Source: Candidatus Undinarchaeales archaeon
GTDB lineage: Archaea; SpSt-1190; JASMDC01
NCBI GenBank assembly: GCA_030753015.1
Contig: JASMDC010000035.1
Location: 1 to 36,044, forward strand
Length of the DNA: 36,044 nt
Direction of reading: 5' to 3'
Part shown: piece by piece, positions 1 to 34,321 of the stretch
Numbering within the stretch: position 1 is the stretch's first letter
How the letters are laid out: the number at the start of each line of letters is the position of its first letter
The notes under the pieces: model-generated
Told to the model about the DNA's origin: nothing
Seen by the model: only the letters and a program-made list of their open reading frames with translations
Databases searched by the model: none
Made by a program: the position numbers and the translations under genes

Positions 1-62
1 CCATGCAGATTTCCCTTTCGACTCCATCCCCTCCCTCTCGTAAGGGGACTTCCCGTCGAAAC

Positions 63-80
63 AAAAAAGAGTTAAATATA
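63..80 (+). promoter_or_regulatory. Archaeal-type promoter (purine-rich BRE + TTAAATAT TATA box) for the giant NlpC/P60 protein gene
   Basis: AAAAAAGAG-TTAAATATA at 63-80, an AT-rich island in GC-rich DNA about 65 nt upstream of ATG 144. Confidence 0.55.
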
Positions 81-143
81 CGACGAACCATAGAATTTTC
101 ATTGAACAGGGGGTGCTCCGTCGGTCGACGGGGCGATGGGACG

Positions 144-15232: not shown

Positions 15233-15368
15233 GGGAAGATTTCTGTGCTTGACGATTATTAAAGCTTGGGCCGGCAGGTCATCTGGGGGGCCCGTAAACA
15301 AGCATCCGGTGTCCGCGGTTCTTTTACTGAAGGTTTATCTATAGTGAAATTATCTACCGTATAGGGAG
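15233..15368. promoter_or_regulatory. Divergent promoter region for the two large surface protein genes
   Basis: Minus-strand TTTAATAA at 15256-15263 (24-31 nt before ATG 15232, implying a leaderless mRNA); plus-strand TTTATCTATA at 15334-15343 before ATG 15369. Confidence 0.6.
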
Positions 15369-19598: not shown

Positions 19599-20561
19599 CT
19601 AAGTTTGTCCGTCAATGAATTTGATGTAAGTATTGATGTACTTGTAGATGTCGTCCGGGGAGATGGCTACCGCCAACCCCTTCTGCTCCTTTGCGCACTG
19701 CAGCGCGGCGAACAGAATCGCACCCGTTGTGGGTCCCACGAGAAGGCCCCCCTTCCTTGCTAAAAGGATTCCGGTCCTGTAGGCGTCCTCGTCCGAGACC
19801 GAGATGACCTCGTCAATAAGCGACATGTCAAGTATCTTCGGGACAAGGTCATCCCTCAGACCCGTTATCCTCTTCATCCCAGGCAGGTTGTGCTCTGCCG
19901 TTTCCGGCTCGATCCCTATCACTTTGATATCGGGTTTCTTCTCCTTTAGATACTTGCTCACACCAGTTATCGTCCCACACGTCCCGAACGCAGCGAAGAA
20001 ATAATCGATCTTGCCTCGTGTCTGTCGCCAGATCTCCGGACCCGTCGTCTCGTAGTGCGCTCGAACGTTCAGTTCGTTCTCATACTGGTTCGGGTAGACA
20101 TACGAGCCCTCGTTCCGTGGGCTCTCAGCGATGCTCTTTGCCAAGCCCCGTGCTCCCTCGTTCGGGAACAACGGACACAGGCCGTCGTCCGCCTCCCAGA
20201 GCTCGACGCCCAGGAGTCTCAACAGCTTCTTCTTCTCCTCCGGGATCCGATCAGGTACGGCGATCTCGACGGGGATGCCCCTGGCGTTCGCCAACGATGC
20301 CAAGGCGATGCCGGTATTACCTGAGGAGGGCTCGATCAAGGACTGGCCTTTCTTGATCCCGGCATGCTCCAACATCGATAAGGCGATCCTGTCCTTGACG
20401 GAACCGAAGGGATTGTACCGCTCCAGCTTGAGGTAAATCGGAAAGCCAGGATGTGGATTGATACCCTCGTTCACCCGTACCATCGGTGTCGGATTCTCCG
20501 GGTTCGAGATGAGGCCCTCTATGCTATCGTAGACCCTGAGCTGATCGTTCGGTCCTGTCAT
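19599..20561 (-). CDS. cysK: Cysteine synthase family protein (PLP-dependent, CysK/CysM)
   Basis: KLERYNPFGSVKDRIA (PLP lysine), SSGNTGIALA, NQYEN, HYETTGPEIW, GTCGTITG; GGAGGTG SD. The CysK versus CysM subtype is not resolved. Confidence 0.9.
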   Translation of the reverse strand: MTGPNDQLRVYDSIEGLISNPENPTPMVRVNEGINPHPGFPIYLKLERYNPFGSVKDRIALSMLEHAGIKKGQSLIEPSSGNTGIALASLANARGIPVEIAVPDRIPEEKKKLLRLLGVELWEADDGLCPLFPNEGARGLAKSIAESPRNEGSYVYPNQYENELNVRAHYETTGPEIWRQTRGKIDYFFAAFGTCGTITGVSKYLKEKKPDIKVIGIEPETAEHNLPGMKRITGLRDDLVPKILDMSLIDEVISVSDEDAYRTGILLARKGGLLVGPTTGAILFAALQCAKEQKGLAVAISPDDIYKYINTYIKFIDGQT

Positions 20562-20592
20562 ACATACACCTCCTTGGTATAGAGAGCGGCAC

Positions 20593-20859
20593 CTAGCCCT
20601 TCTTGATGATTATTTTTCGGGAGGTCTTGTCCACGTCGGTGGTCTCGAGCACCGTGCACCCGAGCTTATCAGCGGCGCTGAGGATGGTCTCGAAGGACGG
20701 TACGTTGTCGGTAACCACCTCGAGCACATCCCCGGAGGAGAGCGTCTTCAAGGCCCTCCTCACAAGGACCTCAGGGTAGGGGCAGGAGTATCCCAACGCA
20801 TCCAGTGCGTACCGCCCCTTTTCAAGTTCCTCAAGACCGAGCTTTCCATGTGATGTCAT
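20593..20859 (-). CDS. tusA: TusA/SirA family sulfur carrier
   Basis: LDALGYSCPYP (CPxP) and GDVLEVVTDN motifs; GAGGTGA SD. Confidence 0.9.
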   Translation of the reverse strand: MTSHGKLGLEELEKGRYALDALGYSCPYPEVLVRRALKTLSSGDVLEVVTDNVPSFETILSAADKLGCTVLETTDVDKTSRKIIIKKG

Positions 20860-20860
20860 C

Positions 20861-22357
20861 CTATTTCACCTCTAGTTGTACCATCGATCCCAGTTCCTCT
20901 GCTGAATGTGATGCGCAGAACTCTGCGAAGTCCGCAAAACCCTCCTTCAGACAGTAGTCCACGAGCCTCTCGATCACGTCCCTCACGTGCTCCGGGTCCA
21001 CCTTCTTCGCCACGAGCTTGCTGAGCTGCGCCTTCTCTCCAAGCCTGCCGCCGAGGTAGATGTGGTATAACTCCCTGGCCTCGCTCGCGCTCACCGGAAT
21101 GCCCATCAGGCCTATGTCCCCAGTCGTCCGCAAGCAACAATCGTTCGGGCACCCGGACACGTACAGCCTCAGCTTCAGGTCATCGAGAGCCGTGCCAAAG
21201 CGACGCTCTAGATGCTCGACGATCCCCCTCGCCATCTGCTTTGGATAGGGTTCTGCGGCTTTTCCACAGAAGTCGGCCGCGCAGCCGATTGCCGTCCATC
21301 GGAGCGGCGGGCCCCGAACTGGCAGGTCTATGTCCCCAAGCTGCTTCAGGGCGTCCTCCAGCCCGTCCTGGGGGATGTTCACGAGGATCATGTTCTGGAA
21401 CGTGGTGTTCCGAACCTCGCCGCTCCCGAACTCGTCGACGATGTCGGACACGCGCCGCATGCGCTCGCTGGAAAGGATCCCCCCGATCAGCGGGATGGTG
21501 ATGAAGTAGTTTCCGTCCTTCTGTTCCTGGATCCCGCTGTGCTCTTCGCCGCTTATCCTCGGGCGGACCTCGAGCGGCTCCAGCTTCCTGCCCAGCTTTT
21601 CTTCGAGCTTCTCCCTCACCTGCTGGACGCCCCAGTTCGCGACCAGGTACTTGAACCGCGCCTTCGCCTTGCTCTCGCGGTTGCCGTGGTCCCGGTGGAT
21701 CTCGGCCATGGCCCGGGTGACGTCGAAGACATCGGAGGGCTTGATGAACGCGCCCAGCGGCTCGGCGAGCCTCGGCCCCGGCTGCGTCGCCCCGACCCCT
21801 CCACCGATGAGGGCAGCGAATCCAACCTCACCCTCATGCTCCACGGCGAACAGCCCTATGTCCTGGACCTCGGGCTTGGTGCACCTGATATCACACCCCG
21901 TGATCGAGATCTTGAACTTCTTGGGCATGTCGAGGAAGTCCCGGTTGCCGATGAAGAAATCGTTCATCTTCTTGGCCAGCGGCCGGACGTCGATGAGCTC
22001 GTCCCTGTCGACGCCTGCTACCGGGCACACGACGATGTTCCGAACATCGCCGTACCGCGCCCCCGGAAAGGCCTGGCCGCATTTGTCGGTGGTGAATCCG
22101 AGCTTCTCCATCCGGGCAAAGGCCTTCGGCGCATGCTCACCCTCTATCCAGTGGAGCTGTATGTCCTGTCGATCCGTGATCTCCGTATAGCCGCGGCCGT
22201 AGTCGTCGGACATCTGGGCGATGGCGCGGAGCTGTTCAGATGTCAATGTCCCGGCCGGGACCTTTATCCTGAGGAACTGATGGGAGCCGAGCCCCCGGTC
22301 TCTTCCCAGAGAATATCTGTCCATGAACCGCATGAGGTCGTCGGTTTCTATCTCCAT
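20861..22357 (-). CDS. sir: Ferredoxin-dependent sulfite (nitrite/sulfite family) reductase, siroheme/[4Fe-4S] hemoprotein
   Basis: LRIKVPAG, ITDRQDIQLH, VRNIVVCP, MPKKFKISITGC, KARFKYLV, CAADFC...SGCPNDC ligands; the operon context favours sulfite. Confidence 0.9.
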   Translation of the reverse strand: MEIETDDLMRFMDRYSLGRDRGLGSHQFLRIKVPAGTLTSEQLRAIAQMSDDYGRGYTEITDRQDIQLHWIEGEHAPKAFARMEKLGFTTDKCGQAFPGARYGDVRNIVVCPVAGVDRDELIDVRPLAKKMNDFFIGNRDFLDMPKKFKISITGCDIRCTKPEVQDIGLFAVEHEGEVGFAALIGGGVGATQPGPRLAEPLGAFIKPSDVFDVTRAMAEIHRDHGNRESKAKARFKYLVANWGVQQVREKLEEKLGRKLEPLEVRPRISGEEHSGIQEQKDGNYFITIPLIGGILSSERMRRVSDIVDEFGSGEVRNTTFQNMILVNIPQDGLEDALKQLGDIDLPVRGPPLRWTAIGCAADFCGKAAEPYPKQMARGIVEHLERRFGTALDDLKLRLYVSGCPNDCCLRTTGDIGLMGIPVSASEARELYHIYLGGRLGEKAQLSKLVAKKVDPEHVRDVIERLVDYCLKEGFADFAEFCASHSAEELGSMVQLEVK

Positions 22358-22400
22358 TTCAGTGCCCCCTGCATCGTATGTCAGATTGAAACATCTATTG

Positions 22401-23369
22401 TCACACTTCCTTGAGCCATCGCGCAGCGTCTTTTGCGAAGTAGGTGATGATGAGGTCCGCTCCGGCCCGCTTGATGCTGGTCAGCACCTCCATGGCCGTC
22501 GCCCTCTCGTCCAGCCACCCGGATCTGGCCGCGGCCTTCACCATGGAGTACTCGCCGCTGACATTGTACGCTGCGGTTGGATGACCGAACCGTTCCTTCA
22601 CCCGCCGGATGATGTCCAGGTACGGTAGGGCCGGTTTGACCATGACGATATCGGCGCCCTCGTCGATGTCCAGGGCCACCTCCCGCAAAGCCTCCTCCCC
22701 GTTAGCAGGGTCCATCTGGTAGCTTCGTCGATCCCCGAATTGGGGAGTCGAGTACGCCGCCTCGCGAAAGGGACCGTAGAAGGAGGACGCGAACTTGGCA
22801 GCATAGGACATGATACCGATGTGCTCGTACCCTGCACCGTCGAGCGCGGTCCTGATGGCACCCACCCGCCCGTCCATCATGTCCGACGGCGCCACCATGT
22901 CAGCTCCCGCCTCTGCGTGGGACCGTGCGACCTTGGTAAGCAGGTCGAGAGAGGGATCGTTGAGCACGCTGCCGTCCGAGACCACGCCGCAGTGACCCGA
23001 TGTAGTGTACTGGCAGAGGCACACATCGGTGATGACCACCAGTCTGTCGCCGTAGGCCTCCTTGAGTGCGGTAACGGCCTGCTGCACTACACCCTCCGAA
23101 GACGAGGCAGAGGACGCATTTGGGTCCTTTTTCAGGGGGATGCCGAAGAGGAGCACCGCAGGGATTCCGAGGTCCACCACGGACCGGGCCTCTTCCACTA
23201 CGCCCTCGTATGGGACGTGGAAGACGCCCGGCATCGAGGGGATCTCGCTCTTCTCGGTGATGCCCTCCCGCACGAACAAGGGTGCGACCAGGTCGTTGAC
23301 GCTCAGCTGCGTCTCCCGCATCATCCTCCGGATGGCCTCCGAGCGGCGGAGCCTCCGGGGTCGTATCAC
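22401..23369 (-). CDS. hemB: Porphobilinogen synthase (Zn-type)
   Basis: [56 protein letters not shown]; the true start may be CTG at 23384 (see findings). Confidence 0.97.
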
Positions 23370-23439
23370 CGGGAAGCCGGACAGGACGATCCCCCCTTGG
23401 TAAAGATCACGTTCTCGTTATAATACAAAATTGGCATGT

Positions 23440-24771
23440 TCACCCACCCCCTCCACTCACCATGCTCCCGAAAGCGCGGTCGGCGATGGCGATAGTCTCC
23501 TCGATGTCATGGTCCGAATGTGCAGTGGAGACGAACCCGGACTCGAACTGTGATGGTGCGAGGTTGACACCTGCGGACTGGAGCGCCCAGAAGAACCTTG
23601 CGTACCGTGCCGTGTCCGATCCTTTGGCAGTTGCATGGTCCCGGACCTCCGTTGTTGTGAAGAACATCGAGAACATGGACCCTACTCTGGTGGGGAAGAC
23701 ATCCACGCCATGTTCTTCGGCAGCAGCTGTCAGACCCTTGTCGAGAGTGGACGATGCCCGCTCGAGACGATCGTACACACCTTCACGTCCAAGGACCTCG
23801 AGGGTCTTGATACCTGCGCGCATCGCAACGGGATTCCCCGAGAGAGTCCCTGCTTGGTAGACCTTACCGATGGGTGCGACCTGTTCCATTATGTCCCTCC
23901 TTCCTCCGTAGGCCCCTACGGGGAATCCCCCGCCGATGACCTTTCCTAGACAAGTTAGGTCCGGGACAACGCCGAACCGGCCCTGCGCTCCGTTGTACCC
24001 GACCCGGAACCCTGTGATCACCTCGTCGAACACGAGCAGGATGTCCTCGCGGTCGCAGATCTCCCGTAGACCCTCCAGGAATCCCTCACGTGGCGGTACG
24101 ACACCCATGTTCCCGCACACGGGCTCGAGGATGATGCACGCGATCCTGCCACGGTGGTTCTTCACGACGGTGTCAACAGCGAGAAGGTCGTTATATGGGA
24201 GCGAGATGGTGTTCCTCGCAAAGTCAGCAGGCACGCCCTTGCTGTCGGGAACACCAAGGGTCAGTCCGCCTGATCCGGCCTGGATGAGGAGATGGTCCAC
24301 ATGACCGTGGTAACAGCCATCGAACTTGATGATAATGTCCCTGCCCGTGAATCCCCGGGCGAGACGGATCGCGGACATGGTGGCCTCGGTGCCGGAGTTG
24401 ACCATTCGCACAAGCTCCACGGCGGGCAGCGCTTCCACGATCATCCTGGCCAGTGTGGACTCCATCTCGGTGGGTGCACCATAGCTCACACCCCGCTCGG
24501 TCTGGTCCCGCACGCACGCCATCACCTCGGGGTGGGCATGGCCGAGGATGAGGGGACCCCAGGAGCACACATAGTCGATGTACTCCTTCCCGTCGACATC
24601 ATGGATCCTCGATCCCGTGGCCCGTGACACGAAGAACGGATTCCCCCCCACACCACTGAAGGCACGGACCGGGCTGTTGACTCCTCCTGGGATATAGCTT
24701 TTCGCAAGGTCGAACAACTTCTTCGAGCGTTCCCCACGTTCCGGGACATGAGTTCCTGTATCGTTCATCAT
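23440..24771 (-). CDS. hemL: Glutamate-1-semialdehyde 2,1-aminomutase
   Basis: IPGGVNSPVRAF, NSGTEATMSAIRLARG, FDEVITGFR, LGKVIGGGFPVG, YQAGTLSGNP. Confidence 0.97.
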   Translation of the reverse strand: MMNDTGTHVPERGERSKKLFDLAKSYIPGGVNSPVRAFSGVGGNPFFVSRATGSRIHDVDGKEYIDYVCSWGPLILGHAHPEVMACVRDQTERGVSYGAPTEMESTLARMIVEALPAVELVRMVNSGTEATMSAIRLARGFTGRDIIIKFDGCYHGHVDHLLIQAGSGGLTLGVPDSKGVPADFARNTISLPYNDLLAVDTVVKNHRGRIACIILEPVCGNMGVVPPREGFLEGLREICDREDILLVFDEVITGFRVGYNGAQGRFGVVPDLTCLGKVIGGGFPVGAYGGRRDIMEQVAPIGKVYQAGTLSGNPVAMRAGIKTLEVLGREGVYDRLERASSTLDKGLTAAAEEHGVDVFPTRVGSMFSMFFTTTEVRDHATAKGSDTARYARFFWALQSAGVNLAPSQFESGFVSTAHSDHDIEETIAIADRAFGSMVSGGGG

Positions 24772-26321
24772 GGTACTCGTTCCCCTCCGTCCTCAGAGGT
24801 CGTATCTCGTAGATGGCTCTCGAGCGCTGCCACGAGGCCCTCCATGGTCGACGTCGTCGCTACAACATCAGACTCGATACCAAGTTCCCTGACCGCCGCA
24901 GCGGTCACAGGACCGATGCAGGCGATGGTGGCCGCGCCCCCTGCAAGGAGCTCGGTCCCCTGGCTCCCTATGCCCTTGAAGAACGTCTTGACCGCTGAAG
25001 GGCTCAGGAAGGTGATGGTGTGGAGCCCTCCCGACTCGAGTTGCGCGATGAGGCGTTCTCCGTCGAAGTCGCATTCCACGGTCCGGTAGACGGGGAGGTC
25101 ACGGACCTCGGCCCCCATCCGGGATAGCCCGTCCGGGAGCGCGGGGTTGGCCCCGGCTGCCCGTGGGATAAGGACCTTCTTCCCCTCCAGTGACCTTTCG
25201 CGCAGCACGGCCAAGAGTCCGTTCGATGTGAACACTTCTGGCACTACGGAAACGGTCACGCCTCGTGACTCCAGCTCTTTTGCGGTCACGGGTCCGATGG
25301 CCCCGACGGAGGACCGGGAGAGCGTTTGTGGCGAAACGCCGCAAGCATCCATCCTGTCAAGGAAGGTACGGACTCCGTTGACGCTTGTGAAGAGCACCCA
25401 ATCGTAGTGGTCGATCCGCAGGACCTCCTCCTCGATCGCCCTTGTATCGTCCAGACCCTCCACCGCGATGACCGGCACGACCTCGGGGACCGCACCAGCA
25501 CCGGTGAGGAGCCGGCTGAAGGTATCGGCCTGTGCTTTCGGTCTCGTTACGAGGACGGTCTTCCCGGCAAGCGGGCTTGGCACGAACCAACTCAGCCTCT
25601 CTCCCAGAGGTACCACGTCACCGATCACGATAACCGCCGGAGGTCGGATGCGTGCATTGGCAGCTTGTTCCACAAGCTCGCACAGGGGAGCATTGACGGT
25701 CCGCTGACGATGTGTCGTTCCGTCCTCTATGATCGCTGCGGGGGTGCCTGCATCGACACCCGCATCGAGGAGGTTCTGCACGATGTGTGAGAGGTTCGCC
25801 ACGCCCATGAGGATGACTAGGGTCTGGGCACGGTCGGTGAACTCGTTCCATCGGATGGACGGAACGGTCTTTATCGGGTCCTCGTGTCCTGTGAGGCAGA
25901 TGAAGGAGGAGGCATGTCGTCTATGTGTCAGAGGGATCCCTGCATAGGCGGGTACTGCGATGGCCGACGAGATGCCAGGGACTATCTCGAACTCGATCCC
26001 GGCCTCGACCAGACGTTCCGCCTCCTCACCGCCCCGACCGAACACGAAGGGATCGCCCCCTTTCAACCGGACAACTCGCTTTCCCTTTAATGCTAGGTCG
26101 ACGAGGATGTCGTTGATCTCCTTCTGGCTACGGCCTTCCCCTCCCGGAACCTTCCCGACATGGATGAGCTTGCATCCAGCTCCTACCTCGGAAAGGAGCA
26201 CAGGGTCCACCAGACGGTCGTACACGACGACGTCCGCGTTCCGGATCACCTCCATCCCCTTGACGGTGATGAGCCCGGGATCCCCCGGCCCCGCTCCTAC
26301 GAGATAGACCTTGCCAGCCAT
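24768..26321 (-). CDS. cobA: Fused uroporphyrinogen-III C-methyltransferase / uroporphyrinogen-III synthase (CobA-HemD)
   Basis: VYLVGAGPGDPGLIT, RLKGGDPFVFGRGGEE; C-terminal half PLAGKTVLVTRP, WVLFTSVNGV, AIGPVTA, CIGPVTA. Confidence 0.96.
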   Translation of the reverse strand: MAGKVYLVGAGPGDPGLITVKGMEVIRNADVVVYDRLVDPVLLSEVGAGCKLIHVGKVPGGEGRSQKEINDILVDLALKGKRVVRLKGGDPFVFGRGGEEAERLVEAGIEFEIVPGISSAIAVPAYAGIPLTHRRHASSFICLTGHEDPIKTVPSIRWNEFTDRAQTLVILMGVANLSHIVQNLLDAGVDAGTPAAIIEDGTTHRQRTVNAPLCELVEQAANARIRPPAVIVIGDVVPLGERLSWFVPSPLAGKTVLVTRPKAQADTFSRLLTGAGAVPEVVPVIAVEGLDDTRAIEEEVLRIDHYDWVLFTSVNGVRTFLDRMDACGVSPQTLSRSSVGAIGPVTAKELESRGVTVSVVPEVFTSNGLLAVLRERSLEGKKVLIPRAAGANPALPDGLSRMGAEVRDLPVYRTVECDFDGERLIAQLESGGLHTITFLSPSAVKTFFKGIGSQGTELLAGGAATIACIGPVTAAAVRELGIESDVVATTSTMEGLVAALESHLRDTTSEDGGERVP

Positions 26322-26333
26322 GTCAAACAGACC

Positions 26334-27266
26334 TCATGATCCTCCTTGTTGTTGTGGGGTTCCTTTGAGGAGGTCCAACCCCCCCAGTGAGACCAGTTTC
26401 TTTGCGAGCTTGCTTGCGGTCCCGGAACCGTCATCGGGAGATCCTTCACCCGCTAGGTCGATCCTCCATTTCCCGTCGGGGGATGCCACGGCCACCTGCA
26501 GACGAAGGACAGTGGAGGACATGCGGGCAAGCACGCCAATTGGGACCTGGCACCCTCCGCCAACCCCCTCAAGGAAGCAACGCTCCGCAGCAACCTCCTG
26601 CCGGCTCGAAAAGTGGTCCACCCTCTCCAGGATGGAACGTATCTCATCATCATCGGCTCTCGCCTCCACACCGATGGCGCCCTGCCCCGCAGCAGGCGTG
26701 ATGACGTCCTCGGGTATGACCGTGGTCCTGACATCTTCTGGTCGGAGCCGGAGGATGCCGGCCTGCGCCAGGATGACGGCGTCAAGCTCACCGGAGCGCA
26801 CCTTCTCGATCCGGGTGTCGACGTTACCCCTGATGTCCATGATGTTAAGGTCGGACCTTGCGTAGAGGGCAAGCGCTCGCCTCCTCAGGCTGCCGGTACC
26901 CACCTGAGCGGCGCTGTGGATATTCTCCAGGGTGCAACCATCCGTCGTGATGAGGGCATCCCGGGGATCCTCCCGCTCCAGGATGGCTCCAAGTGCGATC
27001 CCCTCGTCCCGCTCCACGGGGATGTCCTTCATGCTGTGCACGGCCACGTCCACACGGTCGTCCAGGAGCGCTCGGTCGATCTCCTTCACGAACATACCCT
27101 TGTCCTGCACCTTAGGTGTGCGATCACTCCCGACCGCATCCCCCGAGGTCCGTATCTTGACGATCTTTGTGTCCTGATCGGGGAACGCGCTACTCAGCTT
27201 TTCAACAAGGATCTCGGCCTGGCGCATGGCAAGCCTGCTACCTCGGGTCCCGATCCTCAATGTCAT
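26334..27266 (-). CDS. hemC: Hydroxymethylbilane synthase (porphobilinogen deaminase)
   Basis: RIGTRGSRLA, KGMFVKEI, AVHSMKDIP, GTGSLRR, IRGNVDTR, GGCQVPIG; ATGA overlap with hemA. Confidence 0.97.
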   Translation of the reverse strand: MTLRIGTRGSRLAMRQAEILVEKLSSAFPDQDTKIVKIRTSGDAVGSDRTPKVQDKGMFVKEIDRALLDDRVDVAVHSMKDIPVERDEGIALGAILEREDPRDALITTDGCTLENIHSAAQVGTGSLRRRALALYARSDLNIMDIRGNVDTRIEKVRSGELDAVILAQAGILRLRPEDVRTTVIPEDVITPAAGQGAIGVEARADDDEIRSILERVDHFSSRQEVAAERCFLEGVGGGCQVPIGVLARMSSTVLRLQVAVASPDGKWRIDLAGEGSPDDGSGTASKLAKKLVSLGGLDLLKGTPQQQGGS

Positions 27267-28552
27267 CTTCGCATCCCCTCGATGAGAAGTCGCTGGTCGG
27301 GCGCAGCGTCCAGTTCGAAGAGGTCACGGACGGATTCCGCCTGCCGCTCACCCTCCGCGGAGGTCGCCTGCATCCTCAGGTTCCTGACAGGGTCCTCGAG
27401 AATCTTCTTGGTGAGGCTACGGCTCATGTCATGGATGATTCTTCTGTCTCGCTCGGAGAGCTCGCCCAGCATGGCGAGTGCCCGCCTGAGCTCGCGTGAC
27501 CTGATGTCCTCGATCCTCGAGTAGAGGGATGAGATGATCGGTTCGATGTGGATGCGGGAGAGCCGAGCGGTGAACGTGGCCACCTCGTCCTCGACGATGT
27601 GTTCCGCTCGATGGGATTCCTTCTGGCGGTTCAGACGGTTCTCCTCGGCGATCCGGTCCAGCGAGTCCATGTCGTGGAGATGTACGCCTTGGATCTCCGT
27701 GATGGCCGGATCGAAGTCCCGGGGGACCGCGATGTCGATGATGTGGAGGTCTCGCTCGTTCTCCTGCCCCACCCGTGCCTTGATGACCCGTTCCATATCC
27801 TCTCGTCGTACGATGTGGCGCGGGGCGGCGGTCGAGCTGATGACCAGGTCCGCTTCCACGAGAGCGTCCTGGAGACGGTCGAGCCGCTGGGCCGTCCCTC
27901 CAAAGCGCCGGGCGATCCGTTCCGCCTTCGTAAAGGTCCGGTTGGCAAAGATGATCGTCCCCACTCCTTTTTCCGCGAGAATGCCCGCGATCAACTCAGC
28001 GTTCTTACCTGCGCCGATCACGAGCACCTGCTGGAGCCCTGTGTCGTCGAACAATCCTTCCGCGAGCTTGACCGCGGCCGAGGCCACTGAGACGGTCCCC
28101 CGAGACACACCTGTGACGGTTCTAACCCGCTTCCCGACGCAGACCGCTTTCTGGAAGATACGACCCAGGACCGGGCCCGAGGTCCCGTTCTCCTCGGAGG
28201 ATGCGAGCGCATCCCGGACCTGGCCAAGTATCTGACCCTCCCCGACCATGAGCGAGTCCAGGCTGGATGCCACACGGAACAGGTGCCTGATCGCGTCCGC
28301 ACCCGAGTAGGTATAGACCACGTTCCTGAGGGCCTCCATATCCGTTCCTGACGCTTCTCGGATTATCTCGAGCGTCGTTGCGATCAGGTCATCCGCGCTC
28401 TCTCCGACCGAGTAGACCTCCAACCGGTTGCACGTTGCCACCACGACCGTCTCAGTCATCCTCTGGCATGGTAGGAGATCGTTGACGCGGCGCAGGGTGC
28501 GCTTGGATGTGAACCGTCCCCGGACCGAGAGGGGGGTGGTCAGGTGGCTCAT
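27263..28552 (-). CDS. hemA: Glutamyl-tRNA reductase
   Basis: TCNRLE, HLFRVASSLDSLMVGEGQILGQV, VIGAG, DIAVPRD; the true start is probably ATT at 28573 (see findings). Confidence 0.96.
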   Translation of the reverse strand: MSHLTTPLSVRGRFTSKRTLRRVNDLLPCQRMTETVVVATCNRLEVYSVGESADDLIATTLEIIREASGTDMEALRNVVYTYSGADAIRHLFRVASSLDSLMVGEGQILGQVRDALASSEENGTSGPVLGRIFQKAVCVGKRVRTVTGVSRGTVSVASAAVKLAEGLFDDTGLQQVLVIGAGKNAELIAGILAEKGVGTIIFANRTFTKAERIARRFGGTAQRLDRLQDALVEADLVISSTAAPRHIVRREDMERVIKARVGQENERDLHIIDIAVPRDFDPAITEIQGVHLHDMDSLDRIAEENRLNRQKESHRAEHIVEDEVATFTARLSRIHIEPIISSLYSRIEDIRSRELRRALAMLGELSERDRRIIHDMSRSLTKKILEDPVRNLRMQATSAEGERQAESVRDLFELDAAPDQRLLIEGMRR

Positions 28553-28554
28553 CC

Positions 28555-29190
28555 CTACGACGACGATGTGAATTCCTCAACCCTCCGTACGATCTCTGTC
28601 TCAGAGGCCCCGCCTTTGAGTAGGTCCAGTAGCACCTGGTGTGGGATGGCATTGAAGAACGCCATCCTCTCCTCGACGTTCACCAGCCTTCTCTTGACCG
28701 TTGGTCTCAGGCTACCAAGGATGTCGAGGAGCCTTCCGTACTCCTCTCCATACAAATCCCCCAGCTCCAGCCGTATGCTCCTGGCCAGGGCCGGGCTCTT
28801 CCCGTCCGTGCCGACGGCTATGGTGAGAGATCCCCTTCGGAGCACGGATGGCATGATAAAGTCGCTGTCATCGCGGGAGTCCGCGACGTTGACGATGGTT
28901 CCGTTGGCGCGGGCATCACGAGAGACGGCCGAGTTCATGGCCAGGTCATCGGTGGCAGCGATGACGAGGAATGCATCCCGGACGTGTTGTACCTTGTACT
29001 CCTCTCGGATGTGGATCACCCTGCCCTCGCCCTCAAGTTCCGCGATCCCCGGAGTAACGTCCGGGCTGACCACCGTCACCTGCTCAGTACAGCGAAGGAT
29101 GGAGCGGACCTTGCGTTCAGCGACCGTTCCGCCGCCGACAACGACACACCGCCGATCTTCAAGATGGAGATTGACCGGGAACGCGTCCAC
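28555..29190 (-). CDS. sirC: Precorrin-2 dehydrogenase / sirohydrochlorin ferrochelatase (SirC/Met8p/CysG N-terminal type)
   Basis: VVVGGGTVAERK, VIAATDD, VNVADS..DFIMPS, TIAVGTDGKSPALA; GTG start with GGGGTGAT SD. Confidence 0.93.
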   Translation of the reverse strand: MDAFPVNLHLEDRRCVVVGGGTVAERKVRSILRCTEQVTVVSPDVTPGIAELEGEGRVIHIREEYKVQHVRDAFLVIAATDDLAMNSAVSRDARANGTIVNVADSRDDSDFIMPSVLRRGSLTIAVGTDGKSPALARSIRLELGDLYGEEYGRLLDILGSLRPTVKRRLVNVEERMAFFNAIPHQVLLDLLKGGASETEIVRRVEEFTSSS

Positions 29191-29252
29191 GCATCACCCC
29201 CCCTCTCCAGGCTTCTAGTCCTGATGTGCCTCCGTGCTCGAACGATCTCAGC

Positions 29253-30416
29253 TCAGATCCCTCCTCCATCCTGGTAGTGCATCGCTAGGATCTCGGCGAC
29301 CTCGCCTCGTGTGCACTCCTTCGGCAGGGACGCTCCGATTCTCAGGAGTTCACGTACCTTCGTACCGCTTAAGAATATGTGGTCGCTCTTTGGATGCGGG
29401 CACGTTTTAGTTGTGGCCATGGCATCGCATCTCTTGCAGTAGAAAGCATGGTCGAACATAATGGGCGTGATCGAGAGCTCCTCCATGGTGAACTCCAGAA
29501 AGAGATTCTGCGCGTCGAACGTGCCGTAATAGTTACCCACACCCGCGTGATCCCTCCCAACGATGAAGTGGGTGCACCCGTAGTTCTTCCGAACGAGCGC
29601 GTGGAAGATGGCTTCCCGCGGTCCCGCGTATCTCATGGCCGCTGGGAACACGCTCAATTGGACCCTGTCCTTCGGGTAGTATTCCTCTATGGCGGACTCG
29701 TAGGAGTTCAATATGACGTTGGCAGGTACGTCCCCCTTCTTGGTCTGTCCGACAAGAGGGTGGATGAGGAGTCCGTCGACGGTCTCCAAGGCGCACTTCT
29801 GGATGTACTCGTGCCCCCTGTGGATGGGATTCCGCGTCTGGAATCCCACCACTGTCCTCCAGCCCTTCTGCTCGAAGGACTTCCGCGTCAGAGCCGGATC
29901 GAGACAGTACTTCTCCAAGGAACCGTGGCCTGGTCTGCGGAGCAGGGTTACCTTCCCCCCCACGAGCGTCTCGCTGTCCGAGTAGATCTTATTCACACCT
30001 GGGTGGTCGATGTCAGTGGTCCGGAAGACGAGACTGGCTTCCTTCTCCTTGTCGCGGGTGAACTTCTCCTCGATCCTGATCGTCCCGAGGATCTCGCCCG
30101 CAGGTGTTGAGAGGGCACGCTCGTCGCCGACATCGATCCCCTTCGCTACTGTTTTCGTCACGGGGAGCGTGATAGGCAGTGACCAGATGAGGCCGTTGGA
30201 CAGCCTCATTTCCTCCACCACGCTCAGATAGTCCTCCTGCGTCATGAAACCCTCAAGGGGACTGAAGGCGCCAACTGAAATGAGCTCGAGATCGGCGATG
30301 GACCACTCATCGAGCTCTATCCGTTGGAGCTCACCGGCCTCACGGCACGCCTCTTTCCCTTTTCTCTCTGATACGGTCCTGTCGATGAGCCGGCCGCCAT
30401 GCGGTGAGATCGTCAT
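29253..30416 (-). CDS. sat: Sulfate adenylyltransferase (ATP sulfurylase, Sat type)
   Basis: Start reassigned to ATG 30416 ([11 protein letters not shown]) to remove the overlap with cysH; [41 protein letters not shown], CxxC..CPH, LSGTKVR. Confidence 0.97.
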
Positions 30417-30427
30417 TGCGTCACGTC

Positions 30428-31153
30428 CTAACACTGCTTTCTTCCCGGATGCAGACCGCATTCCTTGGTGTCGGGTGATTCCCACCACCAGCGACCAGCC
30501 CGGACGTTCTCTCCCGACTCGATCGCCCGGGTGCAGGGCTCGCATCCGATGCTCGGGAAGCCCTTGTCGTGGAGCTTGTTGTAAGGGATGTCGTTCTCCT
30601 TGATGTAGGCCCAGATCTCCTCCTCGCTCCAGTCGGCCAGCGGATTCAGCTTGACGAGCCCGTTCCCCTCGTCCCACTCCACCTTTGGCAGCCCCACCCG
30701 GGTGGTGGACTGGGCCCGGCGGAGGCCGGTGACCCACGCGTCAAGGACCGAGAGGGCCCTTTTGAGAGGTTCGACCTTCCTGATGACGCAGCATTCCCTT
30801 CGGTTGTCCACGCTCTCCTTGAAGGAGAAGAATCCCTTCTGCTCAGAGAGCTCTTGAAGGGCCTTCGTGTCGGGGGAGTAGACCACAAGCTCCTTGCCAT
30901 ACTTCTTCCTGACCTCCTCCATGACGGAGTAGGTATCCTCGTGGAGCCGTCCCGTGTCCAGGGTGAAAACCTTCACGTCAGGTCGGGCCTTCAGTGCCAG
31001 GTCCATCAGTACCACGTCCTCTGCCCCGAAGCTCGAGGCGATACCGATCTTGGGGGAGAAGCGGTCGATGGCCCATATAAGGACCTCCTTCGCGTCAGCA
31101 TTCTCAAGTTTTTTGTTCGCGGCTTCGATTTCTTCTTTGATTGATTCGTCCAT
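30428..31153 (-). CDS. cysH: Thioredoxin-dependent adenylylsulfate (APS) reductase, CysH family, [4Fe-4S] type
   Basis: [52 protein letters not shown]; AGGTGAT SD. Confidence 0.96.
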
Positions 31154-31171
31154 CTTGTATCACCTGTAATG

Positions 31172-31915
31172 TTAGATGAGCATGAGCTTGACTCCCGAGA
31201 GCGCGACCATCGAGCCGATGGCGAGGTTAATCCTCCTGTTCTCCATCGTTAGACAATAGTGGCTTCCGATCAACAATCCCGGTATGGCCCCCAGAGTGAG
31301 GTCGAACGTGAGGCTGTAGTCCACGATGCCCATTGAGATGAACGCCGCGGTGGCCGGGAGGGAGAGGAGCGCCATGATCATGAGGTTCGTGCCCACTGCC
31401 TTCCTCGGCTCGAGGCCGTTGATGTGTATGAGCGCTATGATGATGAACGGTCCGCCTATGGAGCTGATGCCCATGAGGAGGCCGATGAGGAGAAAGTACG
31501 ACACGAGGAGGACGTTCCTCCTAACGCTGAAATTCGACGGGTCGTGGGATTGATGCTTTTCTTCCTTCTTGAAGAGAAAGGACAGGGCCGCTGCGATGAG
31601 GATAACTCCGAGGAACTGACTAAGGAGCCATTCGGGGAGCGCTCCGAGAAGGCGGGCACCCACGAGGATCCCCGGGATCCCCCCGACCAGCACGGGCGGT
31701 ATGTACCGCAGGTCATAGTTGTCGTGCCCCATGTGCGTCATGGTCGCGATCGATTTCATGATGGTCCCGAAGAGCATGTTGGACGCGACGACGGTCCGGG
31801 GATCGATCCCGAAGATGGAGAAGAGGATGGCCATCCCTATGATTCCCATCCCGATGCTGGTCATCCCCACTACCCCCCCCACGAGGAAACCGACGAGCAC
31901 GTAGGCGGGATTCAC
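31172..31915 (-). CDS. TauE/SafE (TSUP) family sulfur-compound transporter, paralog 2
   Basis: Multi-TM protein; GFLVGGVVGMTSIGMG, AVGTNL, GAIPGLLIGS; GTG start. Confidence 0.88.
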   Translation of the reverse strand: MNPAYVLVGFLVGGVVGMTSIGMGIIGMAILFSIFGIDPRTVVASNMLFGTIMKSIATMTHMGHDNYDLRYIPPVLVGGIPGILVGARLLGALPEWLLSQFLGVILIAAALSFLFKKEEKHQSHDPSNFSVRRNVLLVSYFLLIGLLMGISSIGGPFIIIALIHINGLEPRKAVGTNLMIMALLSLPATAAFISMGIVDYSLTFDLTLGAIPGLLIGSHYCLTMENRRINLAIGSMVALSGVKLMLI

Positions 31916-32034
31916 GATCCGACATCACCACTCGATTGCCCGGACCCGCTCCCGGTGTCCAATGGGTCATTGTCCTGCGGAATGGAGATGGTCGGGCACA
32001 TTCTTCTCACCGAACCAATCCTACCACTCATCAT
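31912..32034 (-). CDS. Putative 40-aa small ORF coupling into tauE paralog 2
   Basis: MMSGRIGSVRRMCPTISIPQ...; ATGA overlap with the upstream 14-aa ORF and GTGA overlap with the tauE2 start. Confidence 0.3.
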   Translation of the reverse strand: MMSGRIGSVRRMCPTISIPQDNDPLDTGSGSGQSSGDVGS

Positions 32035-32075
32035 CTTACTCCAGCCGCACACCTGTTTAAGAGGTTATCGTCCAT
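32031..32075 (-). CDS. Putative 14-aa small ORF MDDNLLNRCAAGVR
   Basis: AGGTGA SD 5 nt upstream of ATG 32075, just after the tauE1 stop. Confidence 0.35.
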   Translation of the reverse strand: MDDNLLNRCAAGVR

Positions 32076-32091
32076 GCCTTTCACCTTTCGG

Positions 32092-32841
32092 TCAGAAGAG
32101 CATGAGCTTCATGCCCGAGAGTGCGATCATCGAGCTGAGCGCAAGATGCATGTTCTCCTGCTTCGACCTAACACAGAAATGGCTCCCGATCAGCAGTCCG
32201 GGAAGGGAACCGAGCGTAAGGTTCATGGCGAGCGGTATGTCCACGAGGCCCATGTGAAGGAAGGCGAGCGTGGCCGGGATCGAGAGGAGTGTCGCGATCA
32301 CCAGGTTCGTGCCCACGGCTTTTTGCGGTTCGAGGCCAAGGCCTCCGACGAACATGAGGATGAAGAACGTTCCGCTCCCCATCGAGCTCAAGCCTATGAC
32401 GAGACCTATGGAGAGGCTGCTTGCCATTATGCTAATCCTCGTACGACGGTTCATCGTTGATAGTTCATGTGGGTGGCTCTCCCCCTTCTTCTTCAAGAAG
32501 AAGGCGAGCGCTGCCGTCATGAGGATCGCTCCGAGGGACCTTCTCAGGATCCATTCCGGGAGCGCTCCGAGCAGTTGGGTCCCTATGAGAACTCCGGGGA
32601 TCCCACCCATAAGGGCCGGAATGATAACTGCCTTTTCGAGGTTCTTATAGCTGGCATGCCTCAGCGCAGCTATCGACTTCATGAGGGTTCCAAAGAGCAT
32701 ATTTGAGGCCACCACGACCTTCGGATTGATACCGAAGACGAAGAGAAGTGACGAGGCTCCAATGGTACCTAGACCTATCCCGCTCAATCCCACGAGCCCT
32801 CCCACGAGGAAACCGAGGATCACTAATGCTGGTTCTATCAT
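32092..32841 (-). CDS. TauE/SafE (TSUP) family sulfur-compound transporter, paralog 1
   Basis: Multi-TM protein; GFLVGGLVGLSGIG, GLSSMGSG, AVGTNL, GSLPGLLIGS; AGGTGAT SD. Confidence 0.9.
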   Translation of the reverse strand: MIEPALVILGFLVGGLVGLSGIGLGTIGASSLLFVFGINPKVVVASNMLFGTLMKSIAALRHASYKNLEKAVIIPALMGGIPGVLIGTQLLGALPEWILRRSLGAILMTAALAFFLKKKGESHPHELSTMNRRTRISIMASSLSIGLVIGLSSMGSGTFFILMFVGGLGLEPQKAVGTNLVIATLLSIPATLAFLHMGLVDIPLAMNLTLGSLPGLLIGSHFCVRSKQENMHLALSSMIALSGMKLMLF

Positions 32842-32866
32842 GTGGTATCACCTATCAGTATTCTTG

Positions 32867-32920
32867 TCAGAACGTTCTGCGCGCCTTGCCGCACTCTACT
32901 GAACGGCGGCAGACGGACAT
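32867..32920 (-). CDS. Putative leader peptide uORF3, MSVCRRSVECGKARRTF
   Basis: ATG 32920 to TGA 32867, two TGC codons, ends 25 nt before the tauE1 start. Confidence 0.35.
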   Translation of the reverse strand: MSVCRRSVECGKARRTF

Positions 32921-33003
32921 TGCTCCCACGAATCCCCGAAGGGGGTCGAGCGACCGCTCCCCGGATGTGAGGGCTCCGGGTCACTAAGAAGAAGAAATCG
33001 ACG

Positions 33004-33081
33004 CTACTGCTGGGATCCTTTGTGCTGCGACCGACAAAGGCACTCCCCCCAGGGGACCTTGCGATCGTTCACAGAGAGCAT
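33004..33081 (-). CDS. Putative leader peptide uORF2, MLSVNDRKVPWGECLCRSQHKGSQQ
   Basis: ATG 33081 to TAG 33004; same GECLCRS core, same frame and same core-to-stop distance as uORF1; followed by TTTCTTCTTCTT. Confidence 0.5.
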   Translation of the reverse strand: MLSVNDRKVPWGECLCRSQHKGSQQ

Positions 33082-33174
33082 ACCCGCCGGTAGCGAGAGG
33101 TGTTGTGCGTGGAAAGAAGAAAGGTTGCTACTCAGAAGGGGCCTGTGGATGCGACCGACAAAGGCACTCCCCCC
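33026..33174. repeat. Perfect 25-bp direct repeat (33026-33050 and 33150-33174) in the sulfur operon leader
   Basis: TGCGACCGACAAAGGCACTCCCCCC twice, 124-nt period; the flanks also share GCTACT and AAGAAGAAA. Confidence 0.95.
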
Positions 33175-33181
33175 GAGTCAT
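33128..33181 (-). CDS. Putative leaderless leader peptide uORF1, MTRGECLCRSHPQAPSE
   Basis: ATG 33181 lies 25 nt downstream of the TTTTATAA box, at the expected TSS; TAG 33128 is followed by CAACCTTTCTTCTTT. Confidence 0.6.
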   Translation of the reverse strand: MTRGECLCRSHPQAPSE

Positions 33182-33220
33182 ATCACAATAGTTATGTTTT
33201 ATAATTTATAAAAGTTTCGA
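33182..33220. promoter_or_regulatory. Promoter/operator of the sulfur operon: BRE + TATA (palindromic, possibly bidirectional) and ATAACTATTGTGAT operator
   Basis: Minus strand reads CGAAAC-TTTTATAA-ATTATAAAAC-ATAACTATTGTGAT-ATG; 33197-33213 is TTTTATAA-T-TTATAAAA; the operator at 33182-33195 matches the 17975-17988 core at 12/14. Confidence 0.75.
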
Positions 33221-33325
33221 ATTGCGCCCCCGTCGCTCTCAGAGAGCCTTGCACTGCTAGGTTAGTTGAGAATATAGGGGAAAGGAGTTTGTCTTTATGC
33301 AGGATCGACGCGATCGGGAGAGAAG

Positions 33326-34321
33326 GTGAGCATTGTGACGGTGGAGCCATCATTCCGTGACCTCTTCATCGAGATCACTGGTAAGTGCAACCTCAAATGC
33401 TGTCATTGCTTTCGGCCCGAATGTGAGGAGATCGATGTTCCCGTCAAGGAGCTTAAGGACCGGATTCACCAGGTCAAGTCCAACAACATCATCCTCACCG
33501 GAGGAGAACCGACACTACACCCGGACCTTCGTCACATCATTAGCATTGCAAAGGAGCGAGTTGGCGAGGATGGGAAGGTCATCCTGATCACGAATGCTGC
33601 AAGATGGTCCGAGGCGATCATGCGCACCATCTACGAGGCCGACGTGGTGAACGTATCACTCGACTGGGCTGATGACCGACATGACGAGAACAGGGGCATG
33701 AACGGGCTTCAAGAGAATGTTGGCAGGCTTATCGATCAGCTCACTACGATGACGATGCCGCACAAGGCTCGACCGAAGATAAACCTCTTGGTCACGATGT
33801 TCCATGAGAACATGGATGCCGATAACATAGACGCTATCGTCAGGTTCGCGCACGAGCACAACGTGGACGATATCGTCTTTGATAGGTATGTCCCTTGTTT
33901 CAGCAATCCTTCCGCTTTGACAACCGCGGAAATGAAAATCGCCCTCGAATCCCTCGACGCTCTGAGCTCGGAAGCAGACGCCTCCACGGGATCACCACAG
34001 ATCACAATATATGAAATCTTTGCCAACATACTCTACGGGTACTCGACACCGCGGTGCCGATGCAAGGGTAGGGTGTTCTGTGACATCTACGGGAAATGGT
34101 CGCCATGCCCCTTCTACCCGGTAAGGTTCGACAATCCATCGAAGGTGGTCCACGAGCGGGCACAGGAGGACCTTCCGGGAGCTTGCATCGGTTGTGAGCA
34201 TGCCGACAGCTGTCACGGTGGATGCCCTGCGACCCGTCTTGTCGTACATGGTACGCTTAAGAAACGAGATCCCCTGTGTCCGTTCAGGGTACCAATTGAT
34301 TTCCAGGAAAAAGGTGCCTAG
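33326..34321 (+). CDS. Radical SAM protein with C-terminal SPASM domain
   Basis: EITGKCNLKCCHC (CxxxCxxC), LTGGEPTLHPD, ITNA, NVSLD; SPASM CRC..G..SPCPF..CIGCEHADSCHGGCPA..DPLC; alternative GTG start at 33335 after AGGTGA. Confidence 0.92.
   Translation: MSIVTVEPSFRDLFIEITGKCNLKCCHCFRPECEEIDVPVKELKDRIHQVKSNNIILTGGEPTLHPDLRHIISIAKERVGEDGKVILITNAARWSEAIMRTIYEADVVNVSLDWADDRHDENRGMNGLQENVGRLIDQLTTMTMPHKARPKINLLVTMFHENMDADNIDAIVRFAHEHNVDDIVFDRYVPCFSNPSALTTAEMKIALESLDALSSEADASTGSPQITIYEIFANILYGYSTPRCRCKGRVFCDIYGKWSPCPFYPVRFDNPSKVVHERAQEDLPGACIGCEHADSCHGGCPATRLVVHGTLKKRDPLCPFRVPIDFQEKGA

Follow-up and report, generated by a model that had tools for sequence, protein, structure and literature searches.

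We have analysed a stretch of 36,044 nucleotides (nt) from a Candidatus Undinarchaeales archaeon (contig JASMDC010000035.1), referred to here as "the window", whose minus strand carries a cluster of genes for sulfate assimilation and cysteine synthesis, preceded by a leader with three short upstream open reading frames (uORF1, uORF2 and uORF3). An original prediction, made from the letters of the window, had described this leader as a leader-peptide attenuator, in which tandem cysteine codons control the read-through of two oligo-U terminators. By comparing the leader with a diverged ortholog, with related leaders of the same genus and with loci of a distant archaeal family, we have found a recurrent arrangement of codons, reading frames and end points that leads us to a different interpretation: the leader is quite probably a switch with two stages, each a programmed +1 ribosomal frameshift, that responds to how much Cys-tRNA is supplied. 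The genome of the window is labelled G000, the second genome of the same genus G001, two metagenome contigs L025 and L026, and the distant archaeal family f10.

The leader of the sulfate-to-cysteine cluster

The features of the locus, all of which are located on the minus strand (-), are the following:

33205..33220 (-): archaeal promoter, with an element resembling the B recognition element (cgaaac), followed by the TATA box TTTATAAA (33212-33205); kept in L025
33179..33181 (-): putative leaderless AUG, placed by TATA geometry, that would open the translated leader in frame 0; ATG kept in L025
33157..33174 (-): candidate frameshift cassette 1; identical in L025
33128..33130 (-): frame-0 stop UAG, the end of uORF1, nine codons past the site of cassette 1
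33113..33122 (-): pyrimidine tract 1, UUUCUUCUUU, which would be translated in the +1 frame; kept in L025
33033..33050 (-): candidate frameshift cassette 2, located in the +1 frame of cassette 1
33004..33006 (-): second-frame stop UAG, the end of uORF2, which would end ribosomes that have shifted once
32986..32997 (-): pyrimidine tract 2; two U replaced by C in L025
32838..33181 (-): whole predicted translated path, with +1 at each cassette, ending on a UGA (32840-32838) that overlaps the AUG of TauE (32841-32839) as AUGA
32092..32841 (-): TauE/SafE-family membrane protein, the first structural gene (Pfam PF01925, 8.3e-37)
19599..32091 (-): rest of the cluster, identified by Pfam and NCBIfam; a single transcript for the whole cluster is assumed

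The gene order of the cluster is TauE, TauE, PAPS reductase, ATP sulfurylase, sirohaem synthase, GluTR, PBG deaminase, UroM/HemD, GSA aminotransferase, ALAD, sulfite reductase and PALP (CysK/M-like), i.e. a full sulfate-to-cysteine set plus its cofactor pathway; the Pfam identities agree with the sulfate assimilation operon that had been proposed downstream of the leader.

The position of the first codon is indicated by the promoter. In the window genome, TATA-like hexamers peak at positions -31 to -29 before the first ATG of long open reading frames (37, 53, 42 vs a background of about 5), words that resemble the Shine-Dalgarno (SD) sequence peak at -13 to -11 from the first ATG, and 181 of the 276 sites that combine a TATA-like hexamer at -31 to -29 with an ATG open reading frames of 100 codons or more; archaeal promoters are in use in this genome, and many of its mRNAs are leaderless. 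The hexamer TTTATA of uORF1 begins at -31 from the ATG at 33181, which is this same leaderless geometry, and a leaderless start at this ATG is likely from the placement of its promoter. The ATG had previously been assigned to a predicted transcription start site, and the geometry at -31, which is the support that this assignment has, fits it.

The three short frames are located as originally described, i.e. uORF1 at 33181-33128 (product MTRGECLCRSHPQAPSE), uORF2 at 33081-33004 and uORF3 at 32920-32867, and so is the core that uORF1 and uORF2 share. Open reading frames of 17-25 codons are, as such, no more than chance, and the same applies to uORF3, which L025 has not conserved. The core is an exact 25-nt direct repeat, located at 33174-33150 and at 33050-33026, at a spacing of 124 nt. 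A 23-nt version of the repeat has two matches in the window (0.00 expected from 100 shuffles), and these two are the only matches in the whole 3.85-Mb genome, where the control gave 0.

Each repeat contains a cassette whose blocks, taken over all the leaders of the genus described below, are a G-run, three nucleotides, a slippery codon (CUU or UUU), the codon of the ribosomal A site (UGU or UGG) and a C. In cassette 1, these blocks are the G-run GGGGGGAG (33174-33167), UGC (33166-33164), CUU (33163-33161), the Cys codon UGU (33160-33158) and C (33157), while in cassette 2 they are the G-run (33050-43), UGC, CUU (33039-37), UGU (33036-34) and C (33033). The spacing of 124 nt equals 1 mod 3, and unit 2 falls in the +1 frame of unit 1.

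The consequence for the reading frames has been followed with a script that walks from an ATG and moves +1 at every in-frame slip site. In the sulfate leader, both of the window and of L025, the walk shifts at nt 18 and nt 142 and then remains open up to a TGA at nt 341, located within cATGAta, at the start of TauE; an unshifted walk already ends at nt 51, and one shifted by -1 at nt 47. A search of positions 32600-33500 with Rfam 15 at E up to 10 has returned no relevant family, its two matches (E 4.5 and 6.5) being attributable to chance.

Comparison with the diverged ortholog

The metagenome contig L025 contains a TauE with 92% identity to that of the window, together with a leader that can be aligned with the one described above; the second contig, L026, does not differ from the window. 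L025 has kept the promoter, both cores (24/25 and 25/25 positions) and, for uORF1, the start codon, the frame and the stop. In place of the ATG of uORF2 it has AGG, and uORF3 lacks an ATG. Despite the loss in uORF2, the reading frame that joins the cassettes stays open, and the serial +1 path ends at the same point as in the window, on the TGA in cATGAta. The distal 79 nt of the leader are 51% identical between the two, yet the leader measures 349 nt in both. L025 thus behaves as the frameshift model predicts: uORF2 needs no ATG of its own, since unit 2 is located in the +1 frame of unit 1. With regard to the uORFs with a C-x-C motif that were expected to be conserved in orthologous leaders, the start, frame and stop of uORF1 have persisted, while uORF2 cannot be regarded as an independent reading frame, and uORF3 does not belong to a conserved leader.

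The nucleotide identity of the cores is, by itself, weak evidence: the TauE genes of the window and of L025 differ at 62 of 750 nt, with synonymous differences at 35 of 228 conserved codons (15%), and at this rate the probability of observing no synonymous change in the 14 core codons is about 0.1. A query with TauE against the genome contigs returned one bacterial match of 26% identity, hence no ortholog.

Two local alternatives have been examined and rejected. Sequestration of the SD sequence of TauE is not supported, as the pairing partners differ between the window and L025 and form no consistent fold, and an alternative small open reading frame from a UUG within the core is closed early in unit 2 of L025 (by eye).

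Related leaders in the genus

A scan for leaderless small open reading frames (sORFs), combined with a degenerate pattern, has revealed two further leaders in the window genome, whose cassettes are located at nt 18 from the ATG, i.e. at the same distance as the shift site of cassette 1.

The first is the leader of cysK-cysE (G000:C34; L029 2915-2675, minus strand; 240 nt), whose genes have been identified by Pfam and NCBIfam (456.8 bits for cysK). A TATA-positioned ATG opens MRWRDRFCHRQYLSLQCAPFGIKV, which contains one cassette, UUUUGUC; after one +1 shift, the frame is open up to a TGA at nt 241 that overlaps the ATG of CysK, both in the window genome and in G001. The leader of G001 (L030) is identical in the ATG and the next 34 nt, has kept frame and stop, has lost the second Cys, and has no upstream alternative ATG.

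The second is the leader of trpE (G000:C54; L038 2434-1008, minus strand), which encodes MKRRDHLWRRRKEAQR from a TATA-positioned ATG, with the cassette CUUUGGC; G001 (L036/L039) encodes the same peptide, with one synonymous change. This leader directly precedes TrpE (Anth_synt_I_N and Chorismate_bind) of a trpEGDCF operon, and after one +1 shift it is in frame with TrpE to the end of the latter. In the window genome, the TrpE frame contains no ATG, GTG or TTG from the upstream stop to the LLES motif, and G001 has one GTG in this interval; an annotation would probably treat the start-less TrpE of the window genome as a truncated gene or a pseudogene. In both the cysK and the trp leader, walks that are unshifted or shifted by -1 end early; the -1 walk of the cysK leader of the window genome does meet a TGA that forms part of an ATGA, at nt 191, but this is not the start of CysK.

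When aligned from their ATG, the three leaders share the pattern x-R/W-G/R-E/D-x-L/F-(C or W)-R/H-S/R. Their differences, which are in phase with the ATG, include third-position substitutions and CGG/AGG exchanges at Arg codons; the eighth codon, UGU in the sulfate and cysK leaders, is UGG in the trp leader. From the window genome, a profile search with nhmmer has recovered just these four units (E of at most 1.1e-6), with the next match at E 0.77.

Beyond these leaders, the other leaderless sORFs of the window genome include no obvious His-, Leu- or Phe-rich leaders, and four of them (C90, C50, C95 and C62) have nothing relevant downstream. A search with the leader DNA in 41 relatives has returned noise (best foreign E 0.0045), and the core pattern has its sole match among 17 genomes of the phylum in the window genome. 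Of these 17 genomes, 15 measure 0.6-1.2 Mb, while those of this genus measure 3.6-3.8 Mb.

Cassettes in a distant archaeal family

A pattern search of 401 archaeal genomes with one mismatch allowed has led us to the family f10, three genomes of which were matched; this search gave about 22 foreign matches vs about 10 in the control (counted from the listing), and five of them (L041, L042, L050, L060 and L061), located inside other genes, have been judged to be chance matches and set aside. The f10 genomes measure 1.7-2.4 Mb, and possibly resemble those of Thermococcales. In this family, cassettes are found at two kinds of loci.

The first kind is defined by the unit AGG..KGMUYGYUUUUGG, which is present in 60 of 97 f10 genomes, with one to three copies at one locus in each (two matches in the control). 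In the 30 loci that have been examined (L068-L097), one to three tandem UGG units are located 5' of a TrpB-like enzyme dependent on pyridoxal phosphate (TIGR01415, 676-702 bits). The serial +1 walk ends on a TGA that overlaps the ATG of the TrpB-like enzyme (ATGA) in 28 of the 30, and in L071 it fuses the leader in frame with the enzyme; unshifted walks, and likewise walks shifted by -1, reach the ATGA in 0/30. The leaders carry one to three sites and measure 93-269 nt; 19 different pairings of these two values occur, and all keep the frame rule. In three loci (L074, L089 and L092), one G has been lost from the G-run of a unit, relative to L072, L093 and L078; the unit falls out of frame, the walk makes one shift fewer, and the path still ends on the same ATGA, so that a genomic deletion of 1 nt replaces a ribosomal +1. 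A conserved GATGCNCCATG is located just upstream, so that more than one ATG may serve as the start of these leaders. One f10 leader, searched with Rfam 15 at E up to 1, gave no match.

The second kind of site, AGGGGGGAUGUNUUUUGCC (UUUUGCC), is present in 69 of 97 genomes, vs two control matches, and is located inside a CysK/M-like gene, after approximately 30 codons, with the Cys codon UGC at the A site. In the 30 loci that we have examined (L113, L115-L117, L120 and L122-L146), frame 0 stops within at most six codons past the site in all 30, the +1 frame extends for at least 230 codons in 29, and the +2 frame in none. Against the cysKM profile, the +1 part aligns from position 25 on and scores 177 bits; this falls under the curated cut-off of 344, as the N-terminal part is located in frame 0. 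The copy in L140 looks degraded. A search of f10 for other A-site codons, with a pattern that allows H after YTTT, has found no cassette; its recurrent match is the end of a gene located 5' of an RNA polymerase subunit-like gene, and has been rejected as a cassette.

The counts from related genomes are not independent of one another.

The 16S rRNA tail, the slippery codon and the A-site codon

As no 16S rRNA is assembled in the window genome, the tail has been read from G001 and from the f10 genome G283 (sequences in L110 and L111), and it ends in ..GAUCACCUCCU in both. The G-runs, GGGGGGAG in the window and AGGAGGGAU and AGGAGUGAU elsewhere, are complementary to this tail except for one missing base, and end 3 nt before the slippery codon. 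The runs are consistently one base short of the complement of GAUCACCUCCU (AGGAG-UGAU, AGGAGG-GAUC), which may be a deliberate bulge.

The slippery sequence is CUUU at both units of the window and in the trp leader; the f10 units and the cysK leader have UUUU instead. Of the two Cys codons, UGU is the less used in the window genome (4711 vs 15104 UGC), and UUU is rare (2132 vs 26093 UUC); the genome has one tRNA-Cys(GCA), and a tRNA-Leu(GAG) is present. On this codon usage, the A-site codon should be slow to decode.

The arrangement resembles that of prfB, where an SD sequence stands 3 nt before CUUUGA and, as long as the A site is unfilled, tRNA-Leu moves from CUU onto UUU (PMC10798248). In both, a CUU is followed by U, so that tRNA-Leu can re-pair on UUU; the codon in the A site is of the UGN type and has a C after it; approximately 3 nt upstream there is an SD-like element that can pair with the 16S tail; frame 0 ends soon after the site, with the functional reading carried by the +1 frame; and the sensed quantity would be whatever decodes the A-site codon. 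The A site of the present cassettes is a sense codon (UGU or UGC for Cys, UGG for Trp) and not UGA, and for this reason the element would work like prfB without being a member of its class. It also differs from prfB in its archaeal host, in the presence of one to three tandem sites and, in the window, in that the shift does not make the product, and would instead carry the ribosome via two sites to the AUGA overlap.

The proposed mechanism

From the anatomy and the frames, which are conserved here and at the related loci, we infer that the +1 shift happens, that scarcity of Cys-tRNA would drive it, and that arrival at the AUGA may raise expression. Transcription would begin at or next to the AUG at 33181, with ribosomes initiating leaderlessly, and the G-run located 3 nt upstream of the slip site would pair with the 16S rRNA tail. 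If Cys-tRNA arrives, decoding would stay in frame 0 and end nine codons on, at the UAG at 33130-33128; if the A site is empty, the peptidyl-tRNA(Leu) would slip from CUU to UUU (+1), and the shifted ribosome would read into the second, identical cassette, where the choice would be repeated. Only ribosomes that have shifted twice would reach the UGA that overlaps the AUG of TauE, where they may reinitiate or, by continued translation, protect the mRNA from polarity or termination; it is only by the latter route, in which the nascent RNA would be shielded from termination, that the pyrimidine tracts could matter. Among the coupling arrangements of bacteria and archaea, the NTGA overlap is the most frequent, and archaeal polarity has been attributed to FttA (PMC12548453).

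With two serial sites, the output would be approximately the square of the shift frequency, giving low leak and a steep response. Given the match between codon and pathway and the logic of prfB, scarce Cys-tRNA would lead to more shifting and hence to more sulfate assimilation. The Cys codons as a sensor that acts at two serial checkpoints, as first proposed, are retained in this model, while the read-through of oligo-U terminators is not.

Taking the loci of the genus and of f10 together, there is a somewhat better than even case that they represent an archaeal family of amino-acid-sensing, prfB-like +1 switches, with a slow UGU/UGC or UGG codon at the A site, placed at the 5' end of leaderless mRNAs, in tandem, or inside a biosynthetic gene.

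Alternative explanations

A +1 shift that is real, but constitutive or non-specific, i.e. one that sets a fixed ratio, acts as a "translational spacer" or answers to general translation stress, would be compatible with an anatomy that supports shifting and not its cause; sites of the prfB type do shift at fixed levels if the factor acting at the A site is constant (from part of PMC10798248). We regard this explanation as unlikely, as it does not account for an A-site codon that tracks the pathway: the codon is UGU in the sulfate and cysK leaders and UGC in the CysK-like gene of f10, i.e. at three kinds of cysteine loci, and UGG at the tryptophan loci, trpE and the TrpB-like gene, and at one transporter-like locus. 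Nor has a cassette been found before unrelated genes, either in the profile search of the window genome or in the pattern search of f10.

Classical leader-peptide attenuation, where the polymerase would get past two oligo-U terminators whenever ribosomes are held up at the Cys codons of uORF1 and uORF2, is in our view improbable. The leaderless ATG with its Cys codons and the pyrimidine tracts that follow both stops are what such a mechanism would use, each core can pair with downstream C/U-rich sequence (-14 to -23 kcal/mol, with some G-C to G-U changes), and leaderless Cys sORFs have a mycobacterial precedent (10.1101/834739). Against a terminator role of the tracts, the longest U run in both is 3, tract 2 is degraded in L025 along with the ATG of uORF2, and the whole leader folds with the energy of its shuffles (z = 0.09); moreover, the inner pairings differ between species, leaving no conserved terminator/antiterminator pair. 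Attenuation also leaves unexplained the +1 paths that end on ATGA, the start-less TrpE, the split CysK-like gene of f10 and the variants with a 1-nt deletion.

An untranslated cis element, either an aptamer of the riboswitch type in tandem or a binding site for a regulator of the sulfur genes that recognises RNA or DNA, is very unlikely: it would suit a core that is identical in four copies (24-25 of 25), synonymous positions included, that begins right at the 5' end of the transcript and that is repeated at 124 bp, a spacing suitable for looping, but the 25-mer has neither an Rfam match at E up to 10 nor dyad symmetry (by eye), the identity is weak in view of the probability of about 0.1 given above, the cysK and trp cores vary at third positions and at CGG/AGG Arg codons in phase with the ATG, and the regularities of the frame paths would be meaningless for an untranslated element.

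Points that weigh against a frameshift switch

Several observations count against the reading of the leader as a frameshift switch. Open paths are not rare: when the spacers are shuffled with the frames fixed, the path is open in 754 of 20000 cases for the window (3.8%) and in 516 of 20000 for L025; the two cysK leaders gave 1354 and 1875 open paths in the same number of trials (6.8-9.4%). It follows that the strength of the argument lies in the repetition across loci and not in any single path. The search patterns were, in turn, built from the sites that they recover, and the independent evidence consists, for this reason, of the frames, the ATGA ends, the gene identities and the deletion variants.

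L025 is the sole diverged ortholog of the sulfate leader. The operon is absent from G001 by the queries used: TauE was not found with the query of the window, and the match to PAPS reductase is just 25% identical. In the four sequencing runs examined out of 22 (X15, X17, X19 and X20), the DNA contigs are identical to the window and consequently add no new leader variants, and the single RNA contig spans 33238-33400, outside the leader, and speaks neither for nor against transcription of the latter. TauE has an SD sequence (GGUGAU) 5 nt 5' of its AUG, and could for this reason be translated without coupling. In f10, the path of L070 (G207) misses the ATGA and ends 30 nt inside a transporter-like open reading frame. 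Finally, we know of no proof in archaea that a single sense codon can act as a "hungry" trigger in unstarved cells.

The open reading frame of L070 resembles a sodium-dependent amino-acid transporter, as judged from its translation.

Neighbouring features of the window

A radical-SAM gene (33326-34321) diverges upstream of the leader. A spacer of 176 nt (31916-32091), in which no cassette was found, lies between the TauE paralogs; the 5' ends of the two genes show 86% similarity over 35 nt. The sulfur cluster is adjoined by two giant open reading frames of 2009 and 2502 codons, at 3-6032 (+) and 7793-15301 (-), and by a gene for a GLUG-motif protein (15369-17453).

Relation to known systems

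In addition to prfB, the cassettes may be compared with three groups of known systems. In Ty1, the sequence CUU_AGG_C makes use of a slow sense codon, and "hungry" codons promote +1 shifts more generally, as set out in parts of a 2016 compendium on frameshifting, which treats hungry-codon shifts as errors or as Ty-type devices (PMC5009743). The likeness with Ty1 and with the hungry-codon shifts of Gallant is that a P-site tRNA-Leu slips on CUU at a slow sense codon; the difference is that Ty1 depends on a permanently rare tRNA, at a fixed ratio, and that starvation shifts in E. coli are treated as errors, whereas the slow codon would here report the end product of the controlled pathway.

Leaders of the trpL type and the mycobacterial poly-Cys sORFs also have a short leader reading frame with regulatory codons that match the amino acid of the pathway; the direction of the response, with scarce charged tRNA leading to more expression, is also the same, and the mycobacterial sORFs share, in addition, the leaderless start (10.1101/834739). 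They differ from the present leaders, which have no conserved terminator/antiterminator pair and for which the proposed read-out is a change of reading frame and not of RNA fold; in comparison with the mycobacterial runs, the window has C-x-C only (one or two Cys codons), with one Cys codon invariant across the related leaders. In antizyme, a +1 frameshift is likewise both sensor and effector of a metabolic feedback loop, but antizyme is eukaryotic, shifts at a stop codon and senses polyamines instead of tRNA charging (excerpts of PMC8211752).

The same excerpts of this 2021 review of archaeal recoding list one cellular programmed frameshift, a -1 shift in fucA1, and a +1 shift that is merely suggested, for one halovirus. 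Our literature search, the scope of which was open-access main texts, has found no description of a frameshift switch at Cys or Trp codons: PMC3711429 has no mention of cysteine synthase, Thermococc, Pyrococc or tryptophan, and the passages of PMC2718504 that were retrieved are unrelated to such a switch.

Significance

The +1 frameshift of the prfB type is known; what would be new here is the sensor and the use that is made of it. To our knowledge, the coupling of amino-acid supply to the expression of biosynthetic genes is largely unknown in archaea, with no attenuator-like mechanism established. If the proposed switch is real, the enzymes of cysteine and tryptophan synthesis would be made to an extent fixed directly by how much Cys-tRNA or Trp-tRNA is available; functionally, archaea would thereby have an equivalent of bacterial attenuation, and their first programmed +1 frameshift in a cellular gene.

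There are also consequences for annotation, as such genes resemble pseudogenes or start-less genes, and their leaders resemble non-coding RNA. Some members of f10 are presumably genetically tractable hyperthermophiles, and the presence of the cassettes in this family makes the switch directly testable.

The device would amount to a portable sensor, in which tRNA charging is converted, by one sense codon placed as in prfB, into a binary decision on the reading frame. It could be chained for steepness, with serial sites forming a built-in ultrasensitive gate, and a second archaeal family would use it both before a TrpB-like gene and inside a CysK-like gene.

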